Below, piece after piece: positions 740-38,806 of a stretch of 38,806 nt of DNA. Both the position numbers and the translations under genes were made by a program. Source of the stretch: a virus; IMG/VR virus record IMGVR_UViG_3300029578_000027. One strand, 5' to 3'. The notes under the pieces were generated by a model that did no database searches, was not told the origin of the DNA, and saw only the letters and a program-made list of their open reading frames with translations. Position 1 is the stretch's first letter. The number at the start of each line of letters is the position of its first letter.

Positions 740-752
740 GTCCGAATCGGAC
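740..752. repeat. Dispersed palindrome copy 1, GTCCGAATCGGAC
   Basis: Perfect 13-mer in the non-coding region between the HNH gene and terS. Confidence 0.95.
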
Positions 753-3594: not shown

Positions 3595-3823
3595 TATCAG
3601 CCCTCCTGTTCCATTTTTCAGCATACTCTCCCGGATAACCCGTTTCCGGATTTGCGTCTCCAGCCCCTAAAACAAAAGGCTGATTTATGTCGTTAAGGAC
3701 ACAATCTGTATCATCGTGCATCCAGTATTGCTTAATGATGCGCTTTCCGAAACGATTCACATAGTTCTCCCGGTAAAAGTTCAGTTTACCGCCGCAGAAC
3801 GGGCACGGTTTTAGGTCATCCAT
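3587..3823 (-). CDS. Lar-family restriction-alleviation-like protein
   Basis: N-terminal KPCPFCGG zinc ribbon and C-terminal AEKWNRRA motif are characteristic of the Lar family. Confidence 0.65.
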   Translation of the reverse strand: MDDLKPCPFCGGKLNFYRENYVNRFGKRIIKQYWMHDDTDCVLNDINQPFVLGAGDANPETGYPGEYAEKWNRRADNG

Positions 3824-4388
3824 CCTTCATCGCCTCCACATAGCACCAGCTCTGGGGCGGTCGCTTGATGTCACCGCCCAATTTTTTGCAGTCTGTGCAT
3901 TCCCATGTGTATTCTGCATGGCAAGAATCGCACGGGTCAGTTGCACGCCGGAACTCGCTTAGTTCCCGCAGCTGGGCATAGATCAGCAGGTCGGAGATGT
4001 GCCAGCCGTAGCCCTGGCAATTGCCAAGATAGCCGTGCAACTCATCGTCTGTCATAGCCACACACAGGCCACACTTTTCTTCGGCCGCATGCTTGTAAAC
4101 GGATAGGCCCCCGGCCTTAAAAAGAAAATCCGTACTATCCTTGTCAATCTTGTAAATCCGGTCACAGGTAAACTCCCCAATGACCTTGCCGCCGCCGTAA
4201 AACTGTGGCCTTGGATAGTCCGTCGCAATGAAGTCCTCGTGCGGATATTTTGGCAGCGTGCAGTAGATGTAACATTTGAACGGCGTGTCCAGCTTCGGCC
4301 TGGTCTTTCGGACTTCGATGGTCTTTTTGCCGTTGGCGATCTTCTCGCACCACTTCGGGAGGATGCTCAGCATAACAGCCTTACTCAT
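3816..4388 (-). CDS. ASCH (PUA-like) domain protein with Cys-rich C-terminus
   Basis: N-terminus SILPKWCEKIANGKKTIEVRKTRP...YIYCT matches the ASCH pattern. Confidence 0.6.
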   Translation of the reverse strand: MSKAVMLSILPKWCEKIANGKKTIEVRKTRPKLDTPFKCYIYCTLPKYPHEDFIATDYPRPQFYGGGKVIGEFTCDRIYKIDKDSTDFLFKAGGLSVYKHAAEEKCGLCVAMTDDELHGYLGNCQGYGWHISDLLIYAQLRELSEFRRATDPCDSCHAEYTWECTDCKKLGGDIKRPPQSWCYVEAMKDG

Positions 4389-4416: not shown

Positions 4417-4683
4417 TCACGGCTTTCCCTCCCATGGTGTCTCAAGCCATTTTTTGATTTCCTTCCAGGTTCCGGGCATAGTTGAAATGCCAGCAATGTA
4501 TTTCATTTCTGCATCGCTCCGAAATTTGGAAAAGAGGCCTATCAATTCATTGTCCGTCATGCTTCGGATCCGATCGGCGATGGTAACGGGCCATGTGCGA
4601 TACGGGCACTTTTCGATTGCGGCGCAGTTTTCAAAGTCATAGCCCATCTGCATGGGGCAGTTTTCACCGGTGCATTTTTTCAT
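4417..4683 (-). CDS. Hypothetical early protein
   Basis: ATG 4683 is preceded by GGAGGG and forms an ATGA overlap with the upstream stop. Confidence 0.55.
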   Translation of the reverse strand: MKKCTGENCPMQMGYDFENCAAIEKCPYRTWPVTIADRIRSMTDNELIGLFSKFRSDAEMKYIAGISTMPGTWKEIKKWLETPWEGKP

Positions 4684-5084
4684 AGGTTTCCCTCCTTCGG
4701 CGGTTCCGGCAGCGGCATCCACGCCAAAGCACGAGCATTTATTCCATTGGCAACTTCACCGCCCCAGCTCCCGTTGTTTTGATATCCGAGTGCATAATTT
4801 ACAAACATTCCATTAAAGTCTCCATAGCGGAAATACTCACCCCAACACAGCACTTTCCGAAAATTCTCCGGTAGCCGTTCCTCCACCGGGATCCAGTGGG
4901 GCACCTGCCCCCGCAGCTTCTCAATTTCCTGCTGGAGCGCCGCGATGTGTGCGTTTTGATTCTCCAGCCGGTCAGCGGCTGCAAACAGGTCTTTTTCCAG
5001 CCCTCCCAGCGGATCCATCATGTCCCCATTTTCCCACCAATCTGCGTGTTCCCGCAGCTTATTTACGAGTTCTTGATCTCTCAA
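4680..5084 (-). CDS. DUF551-like domain protein with N-terminal coiled coil
   Basis: C-terminal half WIPVEERLPE...ALAWMPLPEPPKE matches the DUF551 signature. Confidence 0.6.
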   Translation of the reverse strand: MRDQELVNKLREHADWWENGDMMDPLGGLEKDLFAAADRLENQNAHIAALQQEIEKLRGQVPHWIPVEERLPENFRKVLCWGEYFRYGDFNGMFVNYALGYQNNGSWGGEVANGINARALAWMPLPEPPKEGNL

Positions 5085-5488
5085 AACGGCAGATCTCCTT
5101 CCTCATCCTCCGGGATCTCCCGGAAGTCCCCGGACGCAGGCGGTGCGGACGCTGTGTCCGATTCGGACCGCTTGCTGTCTCCAAAATACACATGCTCCGC
5201 CACCACCTCGGCGGAGCGCCGCTTGCCGCCGTCCTTGTCGGTCCAGTCCCGGAGCTGCAAGCGGCCCTCCACCACGGCCATGCGGCCCTTGGTAAAAAAC
5301 TTGTTCACGAAGTCCGCCGTGGAGCGCCACGCCACGATGTCCACGAAATCCGTCTCCTTCTCGCCGGACTGGCCCTTGTAGTCCCGGTCAACAGCCAGAG
5401 AGAAAGACGCCACGGCGGTTCCGTTTCCGGTGTGCCGCAGCTCAGGGTCGCGGGTCAGACGGCCCATCAGTACGATATGATTCAGCAT
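5081..5488 (-). CDS. ssb: Single-stranded DNA-binding protein
   Basis: OB-fold N-terminus MLNHIVLMGRLTRDPELRHT, and an acidic tail ending DEEGDLPF. Confidence 0.92.
   Translation of the reverse strand: MLNHIVLMGRLTRDPELRHTGNGTAVASFSLAVDRDYKGQSGEKETDFVDIVAWRSTADFVNKFFTKGRMAVVEGRLQLRDWTDKDGGKRRSAEVVAEHVYFGDSKRSESDTASAPPASGDFREIPEDEEGDLPF
5156..5168. repeat. Dispersed palindrome copy 2, GTCCGATTCGGAC
   Basis: Perfect 13-mer inside the disordered C-terminal linker of ssb, read as SESD. Confidence 0.95.
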
Positions 5489-5694
5489 GATTTCTCCTTT
5501 TTCCAGCGGCCCGGCATATAGCGTCGCCGCCGATCTTTGATGTATTCCGCCATGTCCTCCCGCTCCTTGTGGGACGGCATGGCCGCCAGCTCTGCCCTAT
5601 GGATCTCCTCATAGGCCGCCCACCGGGGGCAGACCGCCGGATCGTGACATCCGATCCGGCGATCCGGGCAGTTTAGGCACGGAGGCGCGGTCAT
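5482..5694 (-). CDS. Small Cys-rich protein
   Basis: CLNCPDRRIGCHDPAVCPRW. ATGA coupling at both ends. Confidence 0.55.
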   Translation of the reverse strand: MTAPPCLNCPDRRIGCHDPAVCPRWAAYEEIHRAELAAMPSHKEREDMAEYIKDRRRRYMPGRWKKEKSC

Positions 5695-5810: not shown

Positions 5811-6067
5811 GAGCCACCGCCTTTTGTGTCCAAGTCCATCACTTTTGCATTTTTGACTGCGTTAGCCTCCCAAAATTGTGGGTCCGTTGCCATGCGCTCT
5901 ATAGATTTTGCAAATAAGCGTGCAAATGTGGGGTGATTACGCTCAAGGCCCATATATATGCCTCGCAGCATATACCCAGTCTCAGCGATGATTTGTACAG
6001 GGTCCCCGCGCATATCGATCTCGCACGGACACTTATCACCTTGCAATTTTACCGTTACTTTAATCAT
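5807..6067 (-). CDS. Hypothetical early protein
   Basis: ATG 6067 overlaps the ParB stop. The tracked ORF 5807-6139 has a non-credible N-terminal extension. Confidence 0.55.
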   Translation of the reverse strand: MIKVTVKLQGDKCPCEIDMRGDPVQIIAETGYMLRGIYMGLERNHPTFARLFAKSIERMATDPQFWEANAVKNAKVMDLDTKGGGS

Positions 6068-7478
6068 TTCCGTCTCCTTTCCCTGCCGCTGGGACAGGCG
6101 GCAGCCGCATCCACCAGGCCACGGGGGCCTGTGCCTCAATGCCGCCCGGCATCATCCAGTGTTGGCCATCCCAGTCAAAAAACCGTTTCACAAGTTTTCC
6201 GTCGCCCAGGTCCACATAGGCCGCGAACTCTCCCGGCTCCGCCGGGTTGGTGCTGCCGGGCATCCATCCGGCGATCATCAGCTGGCCCTCCGGCAGCGCC
6301 GGCGGCGTAGGATCGTCCGTCAGGCCGTAGAGGTAGTCCGTACTGACGCCGAAGCACAGCGCCAGCTTGGCGATTTTCTCAGATCCGCACATGGAGGCGT
6401 TCTCGCACGCGCTGTATGTCCCCGGGAATTCGTCAATGCTCTGAGCAAATTCCTTCCGGCTCATGCCGGTCTGGATCCGCAGCTCCTTCACCCGCTGGCA
6501 GAAGGTGGGAACCATCACCTTGTAGTCCAGTCGGGGGTCCTTCACCGCCGGATTCACGGCCGGGGCTTCCGGCTCCTCCACCGGCTTTTTCTCCACATAC
6601 TGGCAGGCCGCCGGGCAGGTGTCCCGGTCCAGACAGTTCAGGCAGCAGTTGGAACCGTGCCACTCGCCGTATCGGTAGTCATGGTCATACATCCGCTCCG
6701 CGTTCTCGCACATCCGGCCGGTGTGCTCACAGCTCCGGCAAGCCATTGTATAGCAGGTAAAGAACTTCCGCACCTCGTTGATAGTGAGGCTCCGTCTCTT
6801 GTCGATGATCCAGTCCAGCAGCCGGTACTGCTCGTCAATGTCCATCCGGGCGATCTGCAAGGCCGCCGCCTCCGGGATCTCGTCCCGCTTCCATCGATCC
6901 ACCAGTCCCGGCACCTTGAGACCGTTCTTGATGGCCGACAGGTTAGCAACCTTGGTGGCCTTGACTTGCAGGGCCTCCGCCACATAGTCCCGGATGCGGC
7001 CCGGAAGCTGCTCACCGGCCTCCCGGCGCTTGATGTAGGCCTCCGTCAGACGCGCCGCCTCCTCGGCCAGCAGGGCATTGGACTTCACCCGCTGGCGGTT
7101 GGCCTCGATCACCGCCGCCTGCTCCTGCCCCTCCGACATTGGGGGCAGCACCCGGCACAGGATCTTGGCAAATCGCGCCCAGTCCTCCTCGGTGCCGTCC
7201 TCCCACATGCTTCGGATCGCCGCCAAACGGCTGTGGCCGGAGATCAGGCGATAGGTGCCGTCACCGGCAGGGACCACCGTAGGAGGCTCCAGCAAGCCGT
7301 TGGCCCGGATGGAGTCCGCCAGCGCCCGCAGTGCTTGAGGGTCGGGCGTCGGGTAGAAGTTCCGGGGATTGTCCCGGATATCGTCGATGGGAATCTCCAG
7401 CATGGTGTCCGCCACACCGGCCAGCTGCTCACCCAGCACGTCCATCACGTTAAATTTCCGCTTTTCCATCCTCAGCAC
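6060..7478 (-). CDS. parB: ParB/Srx N-terminal domain protein fused to a Cys-rich segment, an XRE-type HTH and a DUF551-like C-terminus
   Basis: IRDNPRNFY...LLEPPTVVP...YRLISGHSRLAAI is the ParB-N box. A ten-Cys block lies around CRSCEHTGRMC...CCLNCLDRDTCPAAC. HTH segment MSRKEFAQSIDEF...STDYLYGLTDD. C-terminal end is VAWWMRLPPVP. Overlaps the parA stop. Confidence 0.75.
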   Translation of the reverse strand: MLRMEKRKFNVMDVLGEQLAGVADTMLEIPIDDIRDNPRNFYPTPDPQALRALADSIRANGLLEPPTVVPAGDGTYRLISGHSRLAAIRSMWEDGTEEDWARFAKILCRVLPPMSEGQEQAAVIEANRQRVKSNALLAEEAARLTEAYIKRREAGEQLPGRIRDYVAEALQVKATKVANLSAIKNGLKVPGLVDRWKRDEIPEAAALQIARMDIDEQYRLLDWIIDKRRSLTINEVRKFFTCYTMACRSCEHTGRMCENAERMYDHDYRYGEWHGSNCCLNCLDRDTCPAACQYVEKKPVEEPEAPAVNPAVKDPRLDYKVMVPTFCQRVKELRIQTGMSRKEFAQSIDEFPGTYSACENASMCGSEKIAKLALCFGVSTDYLYGLTDDPTPPALPEGQLMIAGWMPGSTNPAEPGEFAAYVDLGDGKLVKRFFDWDGQHWMMPGGIEAQAPVAWWMRLPPVPAAGKGDGND

Positions 7479-8251
7479 CTCCCGGAGATCTCTTTCACCA
7501 GCGCGGCGTAGTCCTTGCTGGCCGCGCAGTAGGGACGGGCCACCGGCAGCGGCACTTTCTGGAAGGTCGCGCTGGGCACAGCCTTGGAGAACCGGATCGC
7601 CGTCTCAAACACCGGAAGCGCCCCGCCCCGGATGGCCGCGAGGGCCTCCTTCTCGTCCGCCATGTGGGTGAACTGCGTCACCAGCACGCCCAGCACCGAC
7701 AACCGGGGATTGATGGCCCGCATGTGCTGGAGCTGCTCCGCCAGATTGGCCATGCCGCCGGTGGAGTAGTAGTCCAGCCGGATGGGGATAATCACCTCAT
7801 CCGCAGCGGCCAGCGCCGCCGTGCAGGCTGCCGACAGGGCCGGCGGGCAGTCGATCAGGATGAGATCGTAGGCGTTGTCCTGGTCCGCGTCCTCCTCGAT
7901 GGCGTCCCGCAGATCCGCGATGGCCCGCTGCATCCGGCCTACGCCGCTCTGGGCCATGTGCCGGTCTGCTACCAGCAGGTTGATGTCAGAGGGGATCAGG
8001 TCGATCCCGTCAAAAATGGTGGGCGTCACAAACTCCGGATAGTACCCGGCGCCCTCGGTCAGGAGGGCCAGCGTGTCCGCGCCCTCCTCCGCGTCGATCC
8101 CGAAGGACATGCTCAGATTGCCCTGACTGTCCCCGTCGATCAGTAGGATCCGCTTGCCCTGCTTCGCCAGCAGATACGCCAGCGTGGCGGTGGTGACGGT
8201 TTTGCCGACCCCGCCCTTGAAATTTAATACCGCGATTGTTTTCATATTCAC
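7472..8251 (-). CDS. parA: ParA/Soj-type partition ATPase
   Basis: Deviant Walker A motif NFKGGVGKTVTT, and typical ParA length and layout. Confidence 0.9.
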   Translation of the reverse strand: MNMKTIAVLNFKGGVGKTVTTATLAYLLAKQGKRILLIDGDSQGNLSMSFGIDAEEGADTLALLTEGAGYYPEFVTPTIFDGIDLIPSDINLLVADRHMAQSGVGRMQRAIADLRDAIEEDADQDNAYDLILIDCPPALSAACTAALAAADEVIIPIRLDYYSTGGMANLAEQLQHMRAINPRLSVLGVLVTQFTHMADEKEALAAIRGGALPVFETAIRFSKAVPSATFQKVPLPVARPYCAASKDYAALVKEISGRC

Positions 8252-8485: not shown

Positions 8486-9825
8486 GTTTTCTTTTCCTCC
8501 GGGAAAACCTCGTCAATGTCACCGCGATCCTCCACAAGCTCCATCTGGACGCCGCGTCCCTCCCAGCCGTAAGCCCGCTTAGGGTCCCCGGTCTGATCCT
8601 GAAAGAAACGACGGGACTTCTTGTCGAAGTCAAGCCACTGGTGTCTGTGGGAGCCGTAGTCCCGGTTCTTCAGGATCTGCAGCAGAGGCTTTTCCTTGCC
8701 GTCCGTCTGATGGGTGGTGAGAAAAAACACATTGTCTGCCCGGTTAGTGATGTCTCCGGAACCGCTGACATCGTCTGAGGTGATTTTAGCGTTATTGTCA
8801 CTGGTAGATTTCCGAGGGTGCACCACCAGATGGGTGTGGACACCCCGGCGCTTGGAGAAGGTTACCAGCATTTGCGTGAATTTTGACTGCACACGGTTGA
8901 AGTCCCGCTCTGTGGAGTTGTCAAAGTCCACGGACATGATGTTATCGACCAGAAATACATCTGCGTTGTAGCGCATGTGGGCGTACTCAAACTGCCGCAG
9001 AATGGTCTCCGGATCGTGCCGGGTGTTGCGCTCCAAGTCAAAGAGCCAGAATCGCTCGTTGAGCCACTCGGAGATCTGCTTGTCCGCCAGAGCGTCCGCG
9101 GATGCCAGTTTTTTCCCGGTGGCCTGATCCGTGATGTACCGGATGTGCTCGGGACCCGCCGCTTGCAGATATGTCCACTCCCGGAACTGCTCCTTCGGCA
9201 GCTCACCGGAATACGCGCAGACGGTGTGTCCCTGATCCAAAGCCTCTAAAAGCATCTGGCTCAGCAGCGTGCTCTTGCCGATGCCTCGCTTGCCGGTCCA
9301 AACGGACAACTCCCCGGAGTAAAACCCGCCGATGCTGCTGTCAAGCACGGAAAACCGGGAGAGGGTCCGGGGAATCTTGCTCATGTCCCGCCGGGGGACT
9401 TCCGCCAGATTCAGCAAGCCATAGGCGGGCAGCTCCTCCGCTCCGGATAGGATATCCGGGAGGTGGGCCGCTCCGTACAGAGCCACATAGTCCTCAACGG
9501 TCTTACAGTTCCGCCAGCCGGCATCGGTAACGACGTATATACAGCTGGCCGGGAGCCGGGGGCGCAGTTCCGCCACCATCCGCTCTCTGGCGATGGCGTT
9601 GGCGGTGACGATCACCAAATAGGGGAACGCCTCTAAAAACGGACGGCAGCGCACAACATCATCCCAACTGCACCCCAGTCCAAGGCACACGGCATTCTCC
9701 CGAATAGCCGCCGCCTCCACAACGGTATCGCAGATCCAGAGACCTTGCGGTTTTTCCGGATCAATAAAAGCCGGTGAGAAGGTCAGGTATTTGCTGGCCT
9801 GCTCCATAGCTGCTTTAAATTCCAT
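8482..9825 (-). CDS. DnaB-family replicative helicase-like ATPase
   Basis: Walker A GKRGIGKST and Walker B DVFLVDNIM. The start is taken as ATG 9825 (MEFKAAMEQ), overlapping the upstream stop by 11 nt. The tracked N-terminal extension to 9960 lies inside the previous gene. Confidence 0.75.
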   Translation of the reverse strand: MEFKAAMEQASKYLTFSPAFIDPEKPQGLWICDTVVEAAAIRENAVCLGLGCSWDDVVRCRPFLEAFPYLVIVTANAIARERMVAELRPRLPASCIYVVTDAGWRNCKTVEDYVALYGAAHLPDILSGAEELPAYGLLNLAEVPRRDMSKIPRTLSRFSVLDSSIGGFYSGELSVWTGKRGIGKSTLLSQMLLEALDQGHTVCAYSGELPKEQFREWTYLQAAGPEHIRYITDQATGKKLASADALADKQISEWLNERFWLFDLERNTRHDPETILRQFEYAHMRYNADVFLVDNIMSVDFDNSTERDFNRVQSKFTQMLVTFSKRRGVHTHLVVHPRKSTSDNNAKITSDDVSGSGDITNRADNVFFLTTHQTDGKEKPLLQILKNRDYGSHRHQWLDFDKKSRRFFQDQTGDPKRAYGWEGRGVQMELVEDRGDIDEVFPEEKKT

Positions 9826-10573
9826 CCGTGTCACCTGCCTCCCAGCTCTCACTCCGGTCCGAATCGGACCGCCCCGGCAGCTCGTCCTCCCACCGGCGGC
9901 CGTTGAGCCATGTGGCGGGGTAGGGGATGTACGCCCCGCCGTCCCGCGTCCACTGCTCACAGGATGCCTGCGCCTTCAACGCCCGGAGGATGGTCTCCAC
10001 CAGCGCCTCGTCCGGCTTCAGCTTCGCCCAGGCCTTCCGCGCCCGCTGCTTGTCCACATGGCGGGGATACGCCGACCAAAACAAATCGAAGTGCGCATCT
10101 GCGCAGGGGGCTATAGGGGTATTTTTATTATTATCTTTTATACATTTAAAGGGGGGTGAAATTTTCTTCACCCCTGGGGTGCAGATTTTTTCAGGGGTGA
10201 AATTTTCTTCACCCCCCTGCGCATCGTCCGGAATCGCTGCCAGAGACCGCCCGATGTAGATCCGCCGACCGGTCCGCACCGTGCCGCTTTTATCCGGAGG
10301 AAGGGGGCCGTTATCCGTGTGGATGTGCCCCCGCTCTTGCAGCTCCGCCAGCATGGCCTGTACCGTCCGCTCAGACAGCACCCGCACGGAGCCGTCCTCG
10401 TCCACGGCAGTCATGTCCTCGATCAGCGTTGCGTTGGTTGCGTAGCAGAATCCCACCCGGTTGGCCCGCCGCGCGATCCGTGCGTATAGGATCAGCGACC
10501 GGGGCCGAAGCCCCGGATCGTCCAAAACCGGGCCGGGGATCCATGCCCCATAGCCGCAGTCATACCTTGCCAT
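9815..10573 (-). CDS. Replisome organiser / replication initiator-like protein
   Basis: N-terminal winged-helix-like part. The C-terminal motif FWSAYPRHVDKQRARKAWAKL...PYPATWLNGRRWED is typical of Firmicutes phage replication proteins. Contains an internal AT-rich repeat region. Confidence 0.7.
   Translation of the reverse strand: MARYDCGYGAWIPGPVLDDPGLRPRSLILYARIARRANRVGFCYATNATLIEDMTAVDEDGSVRVLSERTVQAMLAELQERGHIHTDNGPLPPDKSGTVRTGRRIYIGRSLAAIPDDAQGGEENFTPEKICTPGVKKISPPFKCIKDNNKNTPIAPCADAHFDLFWSAYPRHVDKQRARKAWAKLKPDEALVETILRALKAQASCEQWTRDGGAYIPYPATWLNGRRWEDELPGRSDSDRSESWEAGDTDGI
9855..9871. repeat. Dispersed palindrome copy 3 (17-nt form CGGTCCGAATCGGACCG)
   Basis: Perfect core at 9857-9869, in the C-terminal tail of the replisome organiser (read as SDSD). 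Confidence 0.95.
10119..10215. repeat. Candidate origin of replication: an AT-rich tract followed by two copies of the 22-nt hairpin repeat GGGGTGAAATTTTCTTCACCCC
   Basis: Copies at 10153-10174 and 10194-10215, with starts 41 bp apart. Each is an inverted repeat (GGTGAA/TTCACC). Preceded by gtatttttattattatcttttatacatttaaa. Embedded in the initiator gene, as in lambda-type ori. Confidence 0.6.
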
Positions 10574-13411: not shown

Positions 13412-13429
13412 GATTGCTCCTTTCCCGCC

Positions 13430-13458
13430 TTGACGGCGTTGCCCCGGTGTGGTATATT
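13430..13458 (+). promoter_or_regulatory. Sigma-A-type promoter reading rightwards toward the CI-like gene
   Basis: TTGACG (13430-13435), a 17-nt spacer, then TATATT (13453-13458) preceded by TGg (extended -10). Confidence 0.6.
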
Positions 13459-13489
13459 GTCCTCGGGGCTATGTCCTCTATGGATATAA
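13442..13489. repeat. 48-bp promoter/operator cassette, copy 1 (46/48 identical to 14229-14276)
   Basis: CCCCGGTGTGGTATATTGTCCTCGGGGCTATGTCCTCTATGGATATAA. Contains the inverted repeat GCCCC...GGGGC around the -10. Confidence 0.9.
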
Positions 13490-14199: not shown

Positions 14200-14216
14200 T
14201 CCTTGTGCCTCCTCTC

Positions 14217-14245
14217 TTGATGTTCTGGCCCCGGTGTGTTATATT
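14217..14245 (+). promoter_or_regulatory. Sigma-A-type promoter (paralogue of 13430-13458) toward the XRE gene at 14346
   Basis: TTGATG (14217-14222), a 17-nt spacer, then TATATT (14240-14245) preceded by TGt. Confidence 0.6.
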
Positions 14246-14276
14246 GTCCTCGGGGCTATGTCCTCTATGGCTATAA
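14229..14276. repeat. 48-bp promoter/operator cassette, copy 2
   Basis: CCCCGGTGTGTTATATTGTCCTCGGGGCTATGTCCTCTATGGCTATAA, with two mismatches to copy 1. Confidence 0.9.
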
Positions 14277-14672: not shown

Positions 14673-14769
14673 CTTGCTCACGCTCCTCCGGCGTCAACTG
14701 GCGATAGAGCGCCAGGGTCATGTGGTCGCGGTCCGAATCGGACACCGTGCGGGTGATCTGGTTGCTCAT
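14602..14769 (-). CDS. 55-aa protein resembling the C-terminal motif of the convergent XRE regulator
   Basis: ATG 14769 is preceded by GGGAGG at 7-nt spacing. Encodes MSNQITRTVSDSDRDHMTLALYRQLTPEEREQVNAYLAQLLASRYTPAPSPAPRG. The 3-prime 71 nt overlap the convergent gene 14346-14672. Confidence 0.4.
   Translation of the reverse strand: MSNQITRTVSDSDRDHMTLALYRQLTPEEREQVNAYLAQLLASRYTPAPSPAPRG
14731..14743. repeat. Dispersed palindrome copy 4, GTCCGAATCGGAC
   Basis: Perfect 13-mer. It lies in the small minus-strand ORF (read as SDSD), between plus-strand genes. Confidence 0.95.
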
Positions 14770-16306: not shown

Positions 16307-17341
16307 ATGGCAAGATACCCGAAATACTACGTCCGGCCTGACGGCCTCCATGAGACCATCCTCCGGATCAACGGCAAGCGCAAAGCCTTCCGGGGAAAAA
16401 CCGATAAAGAAGTCTGGGAAAAGGTCAAGGCATTTGACCGGGAGGCGGACCGCATCGAAACGGAAAAGGCCGCCGTATTTGAGAAAATCGCGGACGCATG
16501 GTGGTCGGAGATCGAACCGACCTTAGAGCACAATACCCAAAAAAGCTACCGTCCGGCGCTGGCCAGGGCCAAGAAGGAATTTGCCGGACGGCCCCCCGGC
16601 GAGATCACCGCGAAGGAGATCGACCAGTATATCAAGGACTTCTCCGCAACCCGCGCCCGGAAAACCGTGGTGACCCAGTTGCAGATCATCCGGCAGATCT
16701 TCCGCAAGGCCGAAGTGGACGGCATTGTGAGCTACAACCCGGCCAGCGCCGTAAAGCCGCCCCGGAACCTGACGCAGACCCACCGGGACGCGCCCCCTCC
16801 GGAGCAGATCGAACTCATAAAAAAAAGCGCAGGCCTCCCCTTCGGCCTGTTTGCCTTCCTCGTCTATTACACCGGCTGCCGCCGGGGCGAAGCGCTGGCC
16901 CTCACCGGCGCCGACATCGACCGGAAGAAAAATCTTGTACACATCAAAAAATCCGTGTATCATGTAGGCAACTCGCCCCATATCAAACAGCCGAAGTCTG
17001 ACGCCGGATGCCGGGACGTTCCGCTGCTTCCGGCGCTGGCCAAGCTGCTCCCCAAAAAGCTGGGAAAAGGCTACCTGTTCGCGGAGCCGGACGGCGGCCT
17101 CCTGACAAACGACCATTTTACCGCGCTGTATGATGCGTACCGGGACGCCAGCGGTGTCACCGTCACGCCGCACCAGATCCGACACGGCTACGCCACCGCC
17201 CTGCTGGAAAGCGGAGTGGACCCCAAAACGGCGCAGGTGCTCCTTGGGCACGCCCAGCTGTCCACCACCATGGACATCTACACCCACGTCCGGGACGGCC
17301 AGCTGAAGGCCGCTGCGGAAAAGATGGAAAAGGGCTTCTAA
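16307..17341 (+). CDS. int: Tyrosine integrase
   Basis: Catalytic signature TGCRRGEAL, HQIRHGYAT, LGHAQLSTTMDIYTHV. Adjacent to a tRNA-end fragment. Confidence 0.92.
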   Translation: MARYPKYYVRPDGLHETILRINGKRKAFRGKTDKEVWEKVKAFDREADRIETEKAAVFEKIADAWWSEIEPTLEHNTQKSYRPALARAKKEFAGRPPGEITAKEIDQYIKDFSATRARKTVVTQLQIIRQIFRKAEVDGIVSYNPASAVKPPRNLTQTHRDAPPPEQIELIKKSAGLPFGLFAFLVYYTGCRRGEALALTGADIDRKKNLVHIKKSVYHVGNSPHIKQPKSDAGCRDVPLLPALAKLLPKKLGKGYLFAEPDGGLLTNDHFTALYDAYRDASGVTVTPHQIRHGYATALLESGVDPKTAQVLLGHAQLSTTMDIYTHVRDGQLKAAAEKMEKGF

Positions 17342-17357
17342 ACACATATTTTCCGGC

Positions 17358-17377
17358 TGAACACACTTCTGAACACA
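17358..17377 (+). repeat. Arm-type direct repeats TGAACACA x2 (12-bp spacing), left of core
   Basis: Copies at 17358-17365 and 17370-17377. Confidence 0.8.
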
Positions 17378-17413
17378 GAAACCCGCAGATCGTTGAAAAC
17401 AGCCGGAAAGAAT

Positions 17414-17440
17414 AGGGTTCAAATCCCTCCTTCCGCGCCA
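17414..17440 (+). other. tRNA 3-prime-end fragment (T-arm, acceptor 3-prime strand and CCA): probable attP core
   Basis: AGGGTTCAAATCCCTCCTTCCGCGCCA. Contains a GGTTCAAATCC T-loop, a 7-nt acceptor strand, discriminator G and CCA. No matching 5-prime acceptor strand (GCGGAAG) lies upstream, so this is not a whole tRNA. Confidence 0.75.
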
Positions 17441-17449
17441 AATGAAAAA

Positions 17450-17486
17450 CCGCTGGAATTGCTTGCAACGCTTGCAATTCCAGCGG
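17450..17486. terminator. Bidirectional hairpin terminator
   Basis: 13-bp stem CCGCTGGAATTGC / GCAATTCCAGCGG, flanked by AAAAA upstream and TTTTT downstream. Confidence 0.75.
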
Positions 17487-17545
17487 TTTTTCGCCGTTTT
17501 TAGCTGACAGTTAAAACCAGATAGAACCGGTTATGATGGGATGTG

Positions 17546-17565
17546 TGAACACAGTTCCGAACACA
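17546..17565 (+). repeat. Arm-type direct repeats TGAACACA / CGAACACA (12-bp spacing), right of core
   Basis: Copies at 17546-17553 and 17558-17565, in the same orientation as the left pair. Confidence 0.8.
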
Positions 17566-17572
17566 GTCGGCC

Positions 17573-21020: not shown

Positions 21021-21055
21021 CGAAAAAAGCCGTGTCCGATTCGGACACGGCTTTT
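21021..21055 (-). terminator. Intrinsic terminator built around dispersed palindrome copy 5
   Basis: Perfect 31-nt palindrome AAAAGCCGTGTCCGATTCGGACACGGCTTTT (21025-21055), with the core 13-mer at 21034-21046. On the minus strand it is followed by TTTTTT. Confidence 0.75.
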
Positions 21056-25149: not shown

Positions 25150-25764
25150 TCACACTTCTCCGGCGTACAGCTCGCCGGAGAAGTACCACGATTTTATGAG
25201 TTTGTTGATCAGCGCATCAAGGTCAAGCAAGATCTGCTCGATGTTGTTGGCCCGGATGTAGTCCAGCTGCCGGATCGTCTCCGGCGTTTCCGGCGTGGAC
25301 TGCATCACTGCGATCTGCCGCCGCAGGGTGGCAATGTTCTGCCGGTACGTCTCCATCTGGCTGGCCGTTGGTGTGTCCGATTCGGACCAGTCCTTTTTCA
25401 CGCTTACCGGGCAATCATAGCCAAGCGCCTGGAACCGTCCCGCTACATACTCAACCGCCGCACCTACCCGGTTGAGGTCCGTGGCGTTGTAAAACCCCTT
25501 CGCAGTCTTGTTCGCCACATCCATCGCCGTCCGGTCTGTAACGAGAGTCAGTAGCCCGTAGTAGAGCGTCAGGTCAAAGTTGGTGCTTGTCCCCGCCGCA
25601 TTGGCGGCGGTGAGGGCAACGTGATAGGTATCATCCACTGCCCGGTCCACCGTAGCCGTCCACGCCCCCTCGATCAGCGTCCATGTGTAGGCCGTCCCGT
25701 TGACGGTGCCCGTCACATAAATGATCTCAGAGGGCAGCGTGACGCTTAAAACCTGCGTGCTCAT
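25150..25764 (-). CDS. Tail fibre component (204 aa)
   Basis: YNATDLNRVGAAVEYV...LDYIRANNIEQILLDLD...SWYFSGELYAGEV is a pattern seen in Clostridia prophage fibre proteins. Confidence 0.6.
   Translation of the reverse strand: MSTQVLSVTLPSEIIYVTGTVNGTAYTWTLIEGAWTATVDRAVDDTYHVALTAANAAGTSTNFDLTLYYGLLTLVTDRTAMDVANKTAKGFYNATDLNRVGAAVEYVAGRFQALGYDCPVSVKKDWSESDTPTASQMETYRQNIATLRRQIAVMQSTPETPETIRQLDYIRANNIEQILLDLDALINKLIKSWYFSGELYAGEV
25375..25387. repeat. Dispersed palindrome copy 6, GTCCGATTCGGAC
   Basis: Perfect 13-mer inside the fibre component gene (read as SESD). Confidence 0.95.
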
Positions 25765-32308: not shown

Positions 32309-32321
32309 GTCCGATTCGGAC
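32309..32321. repeat. Dispersed palindrome copy 7, GTCCGATTCGGAC
   Basis: Perfect 13-mer in the 37-bp gap between the gp10-like gene and the major tail gene. Confidence 0.95.
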
Positions 32322-37311: not shown

Positions 37312-37328
37312 CGGTCCGATTCGGACCG
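37312..37328. repeat. Dispersed palindrome copy 8 (17-nt form CGGTCCGATTCGGACCG)
   Basis: Core at 37314-37326, filling the gap between the terL stop (37329) and the portal RBS. Confidence 0.95.
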
Positions 37329-38806
37329 CTATAGTCTGATGGCCCCCATCAACGGGGCCGCCAGCGGAGCACCGGTGCCCAGCAGCGGTTCGATCGTCAT
37401 ACTGGCCACCAATGCCATAAAGGGGTCTGTCTTTCGGCTTTTTGCCTCGATTTTGGCGTAGATAAAGTTTCCGGTATCGACTCCCTGCTTCCGTGAGCTG
37501 CGGACCCGCTTGGTGTTATTCACGCCCCATCGAAGGTGCGGCTGGTCGCCCCAGTAAAACAGCTCCCGGTCAAAGCATTCTTGGATCACCGGCTCCACCT
37601 GCATAATGTCTGATGGCCGTACCAGCTTCACCCGGTTCTTGTCCGCAGCGTCAAAGCCGATGGCGCGCATACTTTCGGAAACCAGCGTCCACCGGTAGTG
37701 GTCCATTGCCAGCGCCTTGATGTTGTAGCATCTGGCAGCGTCCTGGATGTATGCCGCAATCAGATCAGGGCTGATGCTCACATCGTCCACCGCCGTCAGG
37801 TGTCCTTCCTTCGCCCACGTCTGCCACGGAGCCTTGATCCGCGGCAGGGTTTTGGATTGAAGGCAAATCCATGCGTGGTTGATGTCAAACCGGTCTGCAC
37901 CCCGCCGGAAATGGAGGTTGACTGCCGCCCAGTCGCTCAGCTCCGCATAGTCCAGCCCTACCGTGCAGGTCCAGCCACGCAGATCAGGCTGTGGCTTATT
38001 GGTCTTGAGGATCTTTTCATAGTCCGTCACGCTGATCTCTTGAAATCCAGCCCGCAAGCCCATTCGCTTTGTCAGAAAATCGCCGTTTTGCTCCGGGTGC
38101 TCCACCCAGTCCCGGTATTCGTCCGCCGTCTCCTGAAACAGATCCGGCAAATAAAACAGGGACGGGTTTGCCATGTACCAGTTTTCCGGGTCATGGACCT
38201 GCTCCCGGGTCTCCAGACAGCAGATGAAGGGAAGAAAGCCGTTGTCCGGCTCGTTTTCAAATAAGATCCGCCGTCCTCTGGCCAGATAGTCATCCAAAGG
38301 CCCGTCATTGATTTCGCCGTTGGAGGTAAAGATCCCCACGCGGGGCTGAGCCACCTTACCCTGACCGGTGATAAATACCTTGATGTTGTTGTAGTTTTCA
38401 AACTGGTGGACCTCGTTAAAGATCACCATGCCGGAGCGCATACCGTCCCGTCCCTTGGGGTTGTTGGTGCGCCCTTTGACTACGCCCCGGTTTTTCCGCC
38501 CCTGCACCAGCTCCTTTGTGTGGTAGTAAAACCGCTTCAGCTTTGCTTCGCTCTTGGGAAGTTCCAGCGTGTTCACCAAATCCAGCACCGGCGTCATGGC
38601 CTGCTCCTCGTTATTGGCGCAGATGTCTACGTTGTAGCTGCCCACCGGATTGTAGGGAGAGGTAGAGCACATAGAAACAAATGCGATAAATCCGTCCTTT
38701 CCCGCGCCACGGCCAACCATGGAAAACAGGGTCTTCCACCGAGGCCGTCCGTCAGCGGTGTAGGTGCACATCCAAAGCGCCGTCAGGAATTGCTCCCACA
38801 GGAAAA
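37329..38806 (-). CDS. terL: Terminase large subunit, main part (N-terminus wraps to 1-292)
   Basis: Tracked 480-aa ORF plus open frame to the window end. P-loop-like VGRGAGKDGF. Lies between terS and portal. The combined product is about 556 aa. Confidence 0.9.
   Translation of the reverse strand, partial: FLWEQFLTALWMCTYTADGRPRWKTLFSMVGRGAGKDGFIAFVSMCSTSPYNPVGSYNVDICANNEEQAMTPVLDLVNTLELPKSEAKLKRFYYHTKELVQGRKNRGVVKGRTNNPKGRDGMRSGMVIFNEVHQFENYNNIKVFITGQGKVAQPRVGIFTSNGEINDGPLDDYLARGRRILFENEPDNGFLPFICCLETREQVHDPENWYMANPSLFYLPDLFQETADEYRDWVEHPEQNGDFLTKRMGLRAGFQEISVTDYEKILKTNKPQPDLRGWTCTVGLDYAELSDWAAVNLHFRRGADRFDINHAWICLQSKTLPRIKAPWQTWAKEGHLTAVDDVSISPDLIAAYIQDAARCYNIKALAMDHYRWTLVSESMRAIGFDAADKNRVKLVRPSDIMQVEPVIQECFDRELFYWGDQPHLRWGVNNTKRVRSSRKQGVDTGNFIYAKIEAKSRKTDPFMALVASMTIEPLLGTGAPLAAPLMGAIRL
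38708..38806. repeat. Terminal direct repeat copy 2 (identical to 1-99)
   Basis: See copy 1. Confidence 0.95.

Follow-up and report, generated by a model that had tools for sequence, protein, structure and literature searches.

Why should a temperate phage that integrates into a bacterial chromosome carry what looks like a complete set of partition genes? This question is raised by the parA-parB pair of the IMG/VR virus record IMGVR_UViG_3300029578_000027, a stretch of 38,806 nucleotides that was analysed over its full length and is referred to here as the window. Since bases 1-99 exactly repeat bases 38708-38806, the window is a circular assembly with a unit of 38,707 bp. It encodes terminase, portal, tail and lysis genes, an immunity region, two tyrosine recombinases and a replication block, and its source is a temperate siphophage of 38.7 kb from gut Oscillospiraceae. 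The nearest genome is the metagenome-assembled genome (MAG) UMGS1766 ('uncultured Clostridiales', 1.7 Mb; G001), which carries the same phage at 87-95% identity on a separate contig of 38,764 bp, the largest of that MAG. Related viral contigs or loci are labelled L here, compared genomes and MAGs G, and contigs within them C. The two genes are located in the early/replication operon, beside rep, dnaB and ssb genes. With a probability of about 0.6, we read them as a Soj/Spo0J-like ParABS system with dispersed candidate parS sites that is built into this operon of an integrating temperate phage.

ParA carries the motif KGGVGKT and matches Pfam AAA_31 (2e-43) and CbiA (2e-21) as well as phrog_164, 'ParA-like partition protein' (2e-64). 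Its closest solved relatives are chromosomal Soj proteins, the best being Soj of T. thermophilus (1wcv, 2e-31), and the 3' end of its gene overlaps the start of parB. The initial annotation had placed a canonical ParA and a four-part ParB fusion at this locus. Both open reading frames (ORFs) were present at the coordinates it gave, and the ORF together with the AAA_31 and phrog_164 matches bore out the canonical ParA. The fusion also stood, whereas the number of parts had to be raised to five since a ParB-type helix-turn-helix (HTH) domain had been overlooked. Likewise, domain searches and structure prediction on the fusion revealed domains beyond the ParB N-domain, both in Pfam (HTH_3) and in the AlphaFold model. 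The model has a mean predicted local distance difference test (pLDDT) score of 83, with values above 90 for residues 26-245, about 90 for the XRE domain and for the tail at residues 405-465, 59-77 for residues 246-310 and below 50 for residues 1-25.

The N-terminal half of the fusion is that of a standard ParB. The N-terminal peptide, which reads MLRMEKRKFNVMDVLGEQL in the window and has the family consensus MAKxKFDxSxF, contains a conserved basic-x-F-[DN]-hydrophobic motif in which F9 is at least 90% conserved. For the following domain, the ParB/Srx N-domain of the initial annotation was supported by Pfam ParB_N (PF02195; residues 26-89, 26.5 bits against a cut-off of 26.3), by profile matches to Noc (3e-17) and to ParB/Spo0J (about 1e-11 to 1e-12), obtained with a family profile built from 40 members, and by structural similarity. 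When residues 26-245 were searched with Foldseek, Noc (7nfu) and Caulobacter ParB (6t1f) were matched with a template modelling (TM) score of 0.68 and KorB (8qa9) with a TM score of 0.64, and the alignments span 213-232 columns, including the DNA-binding domain. This canonical ParB HTH DNA-binding domain occupies approximately residues 158-245, between the N-domain and a Cys-rich block. Residues N40, F41, Y42, G81, H82, R84, N127 and R130 of the N-domain are invariant across the family. The nucleotide motifs read SGHSRLAA (family consensus SGHRR) and then IEANRQR; compared with GERRxRA and ENLQR, Ser replaces the first of the two Arg in the clade of the window, and an additional residue precedes the Asn.

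It is in the C-terminal half, residues 246-472, that the protein departs from the standard ParB layout; the initial annotation had considered the whole architecture non-standard, which holds for this half but not for the N-domain and HTH. A canonical ParB C-terminal dimerisation domain was matched neither in PDB profile searches nor in fold searches, and the half consists of the Cys block, an XRE HTH and a DUF551-like beta domain. The Cys block had been described as containing ten cysteines, whereas nine were counted between residues 242 and 292. The pattern is C250-x6-C257-x20-C278-C279-x2-C282-x5-C288-x3-C292, where C250, C257, C278, C279, C282 and C292 are 87-99% conserved, C288 65% and H266 59%. 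Searches of Pfam and the PDB with the block returned no match; the conserved cysteines with their C-x2-C-x5-C pattern are presumed to form a putative metal site, either [4Fe-4S] or zinc. The XRE-type HTH was confirmed by PF01381 (HTH_3; residues 330-383, 24.5 bits against a gathering cut-off of 23), and the family profile in this region matches the ICEBs1 Xre regulator ImmR (7t8i, 3.5e-3). In the tail, W405, P412, W456 and the terminus WWMRLPPVP serve as landmarks. Its proposed likeness to the neighbouring protein at 4680-5084, which itself matches DUF551 (5e-10), survived at the level of fold and failed at the level of sequence. In a BFVD fold search, the top match and about 20 of the 50 best matches were named DUF551, with TM scores of 0.45-0.6 and weak E values of 1e-3 to 6e-2. 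Membership of DUF551 by sequence was rejected: the tail of the window did not match Pfam DUF551 (PF04448) even at E = 10, nor did 24 family tails at E <= 0.01, and comparison with the neighbouring protein gave a BLASTP E value of 0.1 and an hhalign probability of 57% over 30 columns.

As a separate observation on cysteines, several small early ORFs near parB (5482-5694, 4417-4722 and 3816-4388; minus strand) carry short Cys motifs, CLNCPDRRIGCHDPAVCP, CTGENCP...CAAIEKCP and CDSCHAEYTWECTDC, that are reminiscent of the Cys block. These ORFs and the block may be related metal-binding modules.

The window contains eight exact copies of the 13-bp palindrome GTCCGAWTCGGAC (Table 1), whereas 0.02 would be expected. 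The distribution of matches is bimodal, with eight perfect copies and none with a single mismatch. Consecutive copies on the circle are separated by 4416, 4701, 4874, 6303, 4341, 6934, 5005 and 2133 nt, a spacing more even than random as judged from both the standard deviation of the gaps (P(sd <= observed) = 0.0007) and the largest gap (P(max gap <= observed) = 0.002). The eight exact palindromes of G001 all belong to its phage contig, and the remaining 1.66 Mb have none. We also considered whether the palindromes could be hairpins or host repeats, and rejected both, as a loop of 1 nt is unable to fold and the 1.66 Mb of host contigs hold no copy. At least five of the eight occupy small gaps between genes or positions immediately before gene starts, and two are within coding sequence, with placement judged partly from the gene calls of relatives such as L004. 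Separately, a 51-nt tandem repeat of 2.5 copies was noticed at 1003-1128, in or near an ORF beside the small terminase gene. Each unit contains a decayed palindrome (GTCCAAATCAGAC, CTCCAAATCGGTC), and the repeat may represent an ancient array of sites or a region related to pac.

To place the system in a family, we collected homologues of the ParB fusion. These amount to more than 1300 when clustered at 90% and to 2866 representatives when clustered at 50%, and many are full-length proteins of 450-520 aa that share the layout. From IMG/VR, 80 loci were taken in which the ParB fusion is 26-94% identical to that of the window, most on contigs of 30-40 kb. ParA lies directly upstream of the fusion in every one of the 77 loci for which upstream DNA is present, and an integrase related to that of the window is present in about 35 of the 80. 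The 1.35 Mb of related loci contain 165 copies of a degenerate form of the site, GYCCRANTYGGRC, compared with one in a reversed-sequence control, and the sites are of three main types: GTCCGA-N-TCGGAC, TGCCCGA-N-TCGGGCA and TGTCCAA-N-TTGGACA. In the Oscillibacter MAG G403, seven of eight degenerate sites fall within a prophage carrying ParA and the ParB fusion (C4:33.4-61.5 kb), 3-9 kb apart, and an integrated distant relative in G168 (C1:360-368 kb) has the ParB fusion together with three TGTCCAA-type sites.

Most lineages have one site inside parB itself, 50-60 nt into the ORF, where it encodes a conserved N-terminal peptide. The peptide follows the type of the site: VSESDT corresponds to GTGTCCGAATCGGACAC, VPESGT to GTGCCCGAATCGGGCAC and VSN/KLDT to GTGTCCAAxTTGGACAC. 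Because both half-sites of the in-gene copy change together, selection appears to act on the DNA palindrome and not on the peptide. The parB gene of the window has no in-gene copy and reads GVADT instead. In one clade (L059, L061, L063 and L087), a second in-gene site-like sequence was seen in the linker that joins the XRE domain to the tail, where it encodes VSKSDT/PVPKSDT.

How, then, is the phage maintained? A tyrosine integrase and a tRNA-type attP had been proposed for 16307-17572; both are present, with boundaries refined to those in Table 1. The window contains no complete tRNA as judged by ARAGORN, and an uninterrupted, free tRNA-Ser(GCT) gene was found in G403 (C19). In the metagenome contigs L118 and L121, whose ParB is 89% identical, the phage arm (a DUF7841 gene and a hairpin) is fused to an intact tRNA-Ser(GCT), beyond which lie tRNA-Ser(TGA), rsmI, ctsR, mcsA and clpC. 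This junction is an attL in a chromosome, and close relatives of the phage are thus integrated at tRNA-Ser(GCT). Distant members of the family are chromosomal prophages as well (G403:C4, G358:C6, G168:C1 and Flavonifractor phage Cormatin). L007 and L121, which belong to one record (NODE_106, 98.8 kb), comprise two diverged phage copies in tandem at tRNA-Ser(GCT), with an attP-type junction between the copies and attL at the host side. Contigs longer than 60 kb with an intact int-attP junction had been considered as a megaplasmid or a second integration route; walking along them revealed the tandem double prophage, which explains these long contigs. The end of homology of L004 and L005 at 17376 was also dismissed as an att junction, being the insertion of a cassette of an IS3-type transposase and an AAA ATPase beside int. 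In L111 (11206-15063) and L112, an AAA_15/AAA_21 ATPase gene with an IS3-type transposase copy on either side is inserted right after int, at the place of attP in the window; the ATPase is composite-transposon cargo in the prophage and possibly a defence gene.

In the mechanism that we propose, the ParB fusion would bind the eight palindromes via its conserved ParB-type HTH and probably load there as a nucleotide-dependent clamp that then spreads, by analogy to ParB, Noc and KorB. With one site per approximately 4.8 kb, such clamps could cover the entire 38.7-kb genome. ParA would act on the ParB complexes through the N-terminal peptide of ParB, and the result would be the positioning or segregation of phage DNA that is not part of the chromosome, after infection, after excision or during replication. 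Clamps that spread from sites at gene borders could in addition dampen transcription or set its timing, in the manner of KorB on RK2. The Cys block, XRE HTH and DUF551-like tail, which take the place of the dimerisation domain, presumably provide dimerisation and additional regulatory or protein contacts.

This mechanism presupposes that ParB reads the palindromes. Among pairs with less than 40% overall identity, the ParB HTH core (residues 158-190) is the best-conserved segment at 58%, compared with 24% for the XRE domain, 22% for the tail and 21% for the Cys block, and the XRE segment is nearly unrecognisable in clades that retain the sites. Since a conserved HTH core fits a conserved family of sites while XRE diverges, the ParB HTH is the likely reader, and the number of sites, their co-occurrence with the fusion across the family and the co-variation of the in-parB copy make parS the most likely identity of the palindromes. 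We therefore regard the eight palindromes as candidate parS, probably recognised by the ParB HTH. The palindromes might instead be bound by the XRE domain of the same protein, by another phage regulator or by a packaging or recombination factor, in which case the fusion would have a different target. The presence of a second HTH in the protein would allow this, yet we consider it very unlikely: the sites persist together with ParA and ParB where int, rep, helicase and structural modules are swapped, the strong divergence of XRE contrasts with the conservation of the sites and the ParB HTH, and most lineages carry a site within parB.

As for the lifestyle of the phage, the initial annotation had regarded the element as equipped both for integration and for plasmid-like segregation. 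The equipment is there, in the form of an apparently functional integration module and a complete-looking ParABS set, but nothing shows a plasmid-like prophage state. A dual lifestyle, in which the prophage is either integrated at tRNA-Ser or kept as a low-copy plasmid partitioned by ParABS, with the Xer-like recombinase resolving dimers, would suit the placement of ParA, ParB and the candidate parS set beside rep, dnaB and ssb and the presence of a second, XerC/D-like tyrosine recombinase, for which dimer resolution and a second integration route are both candidate roles. It would also suit L008, a 35.1-kb contig that has lost most of int and the Xer-like gene and keeps parAB and six palindromes. 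Many relatives are stand-alone contigs of 35-39 kb, the window is circular and no contig of G001 is longer than that of the phage; however, virion or replicating DNA is equally expected to give stand-alone or circular contigs. The Xer-like gene, found in L004-L007, L021, L040, L106 and L111, is absent from most close relatives, and a search of PLSDB returned no plasmid match covering at least 80% of the ParB fusion, the ParB half alone resembling C. perfringens plasmid ParBs at about 30%. Moreover, ParA and the ParB fusion travel with an integrase across the family, so that the combination looks like a standing feature of integrating phages and not a switch between lifestyles, and since close relatives are integrated into tRNA-Ser, parABS probably does something other than replace integration. 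A dual lifestyle thus seems unlikely, and KorB- or N15-like action on non-integrated phage DNA, or gene regulation, fits better. A role mainly in regulation, similar to those of KorB and BisD, is possible, though we hold it only tentatively. Clamps at gene borders would silence or time phage transcription genome-wide, ParA would be accessory, and the XRE domain and a possibly redox- or metal-sensing Cys block would tie the clamps to the immunity circuit. The positions of the intergenic sites before terS, portal, helicase and other genes of a densely coding genome agree with this, as do a site density comparable with the 12 KorB sites of RK2, the fold match to KorB and the precedent of BisD, a ParB-like CTP (cytidine triphosphate) clamp and gene activator of an integrating element (PMC12409273). 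On the other hand, the invariable adjacency of ParA argues for ParA as an integral component, the two sites inside coding sequence do not conform, the intergenic bias may reflect the poor fit of a 13-bp palindrome in genes, and no KorA- or TrbA-like clamp-locking partner was identified. More speculatively, and in our view doubtfully, self-loaded ParB clamps could form a 'chromatin' that coats the whole phage genome as a switch for silencing, timing or shielding phage DNA, with the Cys block (Fe-S or zinc) sensing redox state or metal and the XRE and DUF551-like domains coupling it to the lysis-lysogeny decision.

Several observations weigh against a Soj/Spo0J-like partition system, and some of them favour the alternatives above. 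The ParA-binding motif (L|F|I)G[KR]G(L|F|I) described for ParB proteins (PMC12704722) is absent from the N-terminus of the fusion. The window has GHSR in place of GERR/GHRR, and the ENLQR box of the family is one residue longer, so CTP may be bound or hydrolysed differently or not at all. In G168, tblastn detected no ParA near the ParB fusion, so ParB is apparently able to work without ParA, and this speaks for a mainly regulatory role. No clear recognition code links GTCCGA, GCCCGA and GTCCAA to the recognition helices of ParB or XRE, which leaves room for another binder; T or C at position 2 of the site varies within single genomes and with identical helices. A consensus scan found no promoter dedicated to parAB, and the genes lie in the early operon that is read in the lytic direction. 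Finally, the loci were chosen for carrying the ParB fusion, so the association of the sites with it rests on the within-genome controls.

Among known systems, Soj/Spo0J and Noc of Firmicutes are the best sequence and fold matches of the ParA and ParB of the window, and spo0J of B. subtilis contains a parS site within the gene, comparable to the in-parB site of most lineages of the family. They differ in that their site is the 16-bp TGTTNCACGTGAAACA whereas that of the window has 13 bp, and the window protein lacks LG[KR]GL, has another C-terminus and is phage-borne. Plasmid RK2 is about 60 kb in size, which corresponds to approximately one KorB site per 5 kb. Its KorB-IncC system resembles that of the window in combining an HTH ParB and a small ParA with many dispersed sites that have a 13-bp core (TTTAGCGGCTAAA), a disordered N-terminal ParA-contact peptide and the same fold of N-terminal and DNA-binding domains. 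KorB, which recognises 12 sites on RK2 that share a palindromic core of 13 bp, serves partition as well as silencing over long distances (PMC11790492). In contrast to the integrating phage of the window, KorB-IncC belongs to a plasmid, and KorB has a linker, a C-terminal domain and a canonical arginine patch where the window protein has the Cys/XRE/DUF551-like half and GHSR/GHRR. A KorA- or TrbA-like partner was not seen in the window, and regulation, which KorB exerts, is a candidate role in the phage. In the linear plasmid-prophage N15, the inverted-repeat (IR) sites are dispersed along the genome, and its SopA/SopB is, like the system of the window, a phage-borne ParABS with several inverted-repeat centromere sites. 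N15 SopB uses four such sites, IR1-4 (PMC7205306), compared with eight evenly spaced ones in the window. Unlike the phage of the window, N15 is never integrated and depends on partition; its SopA belongs to the large type Ia ParAs, and its SopB has a standard C-terminal dimerisation domain. BisD of the integrative and conjugative element (ICE) ICEclc, a ParB-like CTP clamp acting at a distance on the own genes of the element (PMC12409273), is similarly a ParB-family protein of a normally integrated element; this likeness is at the level of the ParB fold, and BisD differs as an activator that works with BisC on an ICE.

A cultured counterpart is Flavonifractor phage Cormatin (ON453905), an induced prophage of F. 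plautii YL31 (PMC10197239). Cormatin has the same five-part protein (516 aa), an adjoining gene annotated as ParA, the order rep-dnaB-parA-parB and four sites of the same family, mostly TGTCCAACTTGGACA. Its ParB fusion is only about 30% identical to that of the window and is annotated as 'hypothetical protein', not as ParB. A 2025 survey of ParB-CTPase fusions reports phage fusions to DUF3850, DUF4417 and methyltransferases, of which only the DUF3850 fusion consistently adjoins parA, and XRE, HTH_3 and DUF551 are unmentioned in its main text and available supplementary material (PMC12704722). The system of the window is set apart from KorB-IncC and N15 by the C-terminal half of its ParB, the even genome-wide spacing of its sites and integration, and an in-parB site is a feature of the family that is lost in the window.

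Table 1. Coordinates of the features described in the window
Feature	Position	Strand	Basis or context
ParA, small Soj-type deviant Walker-A ATPase, 259 aa	7472-8251	-	Pfam, PHROG and PDB matches
ParB-family fusion, 472 aa, five parts	6060-7478	-	Pfam, profiles, AF2, Foldseek
Disordered N-terminal peptide, residues 1-25, presumed ParA-contact peptide	7404-7478	-	pLDDT <50
ParB N-terminal CTPase-fold domain, residues 26-130	7089-7403	-	PF02195, Noc profile match
Linker helix and ParB-type HTH DNA-binding domain, residues 131-245	6744-7088	-	pLDDT 90-98; Foldseek
Cys-rich block, residues 246-300, presumed metal site	6579-6743	-	cysteine conservation; pLDDT 59-77
XRE/Cro-C1-type HTH, residues 325-390	6309-6506	-	PF01381; ImmR profile match
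C-terminal beta-rich domain, residues 400-465, DUF551-like fold	6084-6281	-	BFVD fold search; pLDDT ~90
Palindrome 1, GTCCGAATCGGAC	740-752		divergent intergenic region, ~90 nt upstream of small terminase gene
Palindrome 2	5156-5168		within ssb 3' tail, encodes RSESDTAS
Palindrome 3	9857-9869		rep 3' end, ~30 nt upstream of dnaB-like helicase start
Palindrome 4	14731-14743		at or upstream of 5' end of first int-side operon gene (Cu_amine_oxidN1 protein)
Palindrome 5	21034-21046		between convergent genes; centre of perfect 31-nt palindrome AAAAGCCGTGTCCGATTCGGACACGGCTTTT
Palindrome 6	25375-25387		28-nt gap just upstream of 136-aa gene (relatives' gene calls)
Palindrome 7	32309-32321		between two tandem minus-strand genes, directly upstream of ribosome-binding site (RBS)
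Palindrome 8	37314-37326		32-nt gap from terL stop to portal start, beside portal RBS
Tyrosine integrase, 344 aa	16307-17341	+	PF00589 5e-23, Phage_int_M 2e-9
attP core, AGGGTTCAAATCCCTCCTTCCGCGCCA	17414-17440	+	identical to last 27 nt of tRNA-Ser(GCT)
XerC/D-like tyrosine recombinase, 278 aa	10916-11752	-	between immunity genes and rep
ssb gene			contains palindrome 2 in its 3' tail
rep gene	9815-10573		palindrome 3 at 3' end

Two further repeat regions were observed in the window. Within the rep gene (10150-10218), copies of GGGGTGAAATTTTCTTCACCCC form an array of inverted and tandem repeats, an arrangement reminiscent of a replication origin whose iterons lie within the gene of the initiator. 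In the immunity region, a 61-nt direct repeat with 89% identity is located at 13429-13489 and 14216-14276, 787 nt apart. Both copies carry a near-consensus promoter, TTGACG-17-TATATT, and an inverted repeat, CCCCGG...CCTCGGGG, and a strong opposing promoter is present at 14303-14275. The repeats are probably duplicated operator/promoter units.

ParB clamps are increasingly recognised as general DNA switches, as exemplified by KorB, Noc and BisD, and the family of ParB fusions described here is large and abundant in phages of human-gut Oscillospiraceae. It raises the question of what purpose a ParABS system serves in an integrating phage, and the tail of the ParB fusion places DUF551 in a functional context for the first time. 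Cormatin in F. plautii YL31, a member of the OMM12 consortium, is available as a cultured model. Should the doubtful clamp-chromatin switch prove true, integrating phages of strict anaerobes would be employing the ParB clamp for regulation in a new way.

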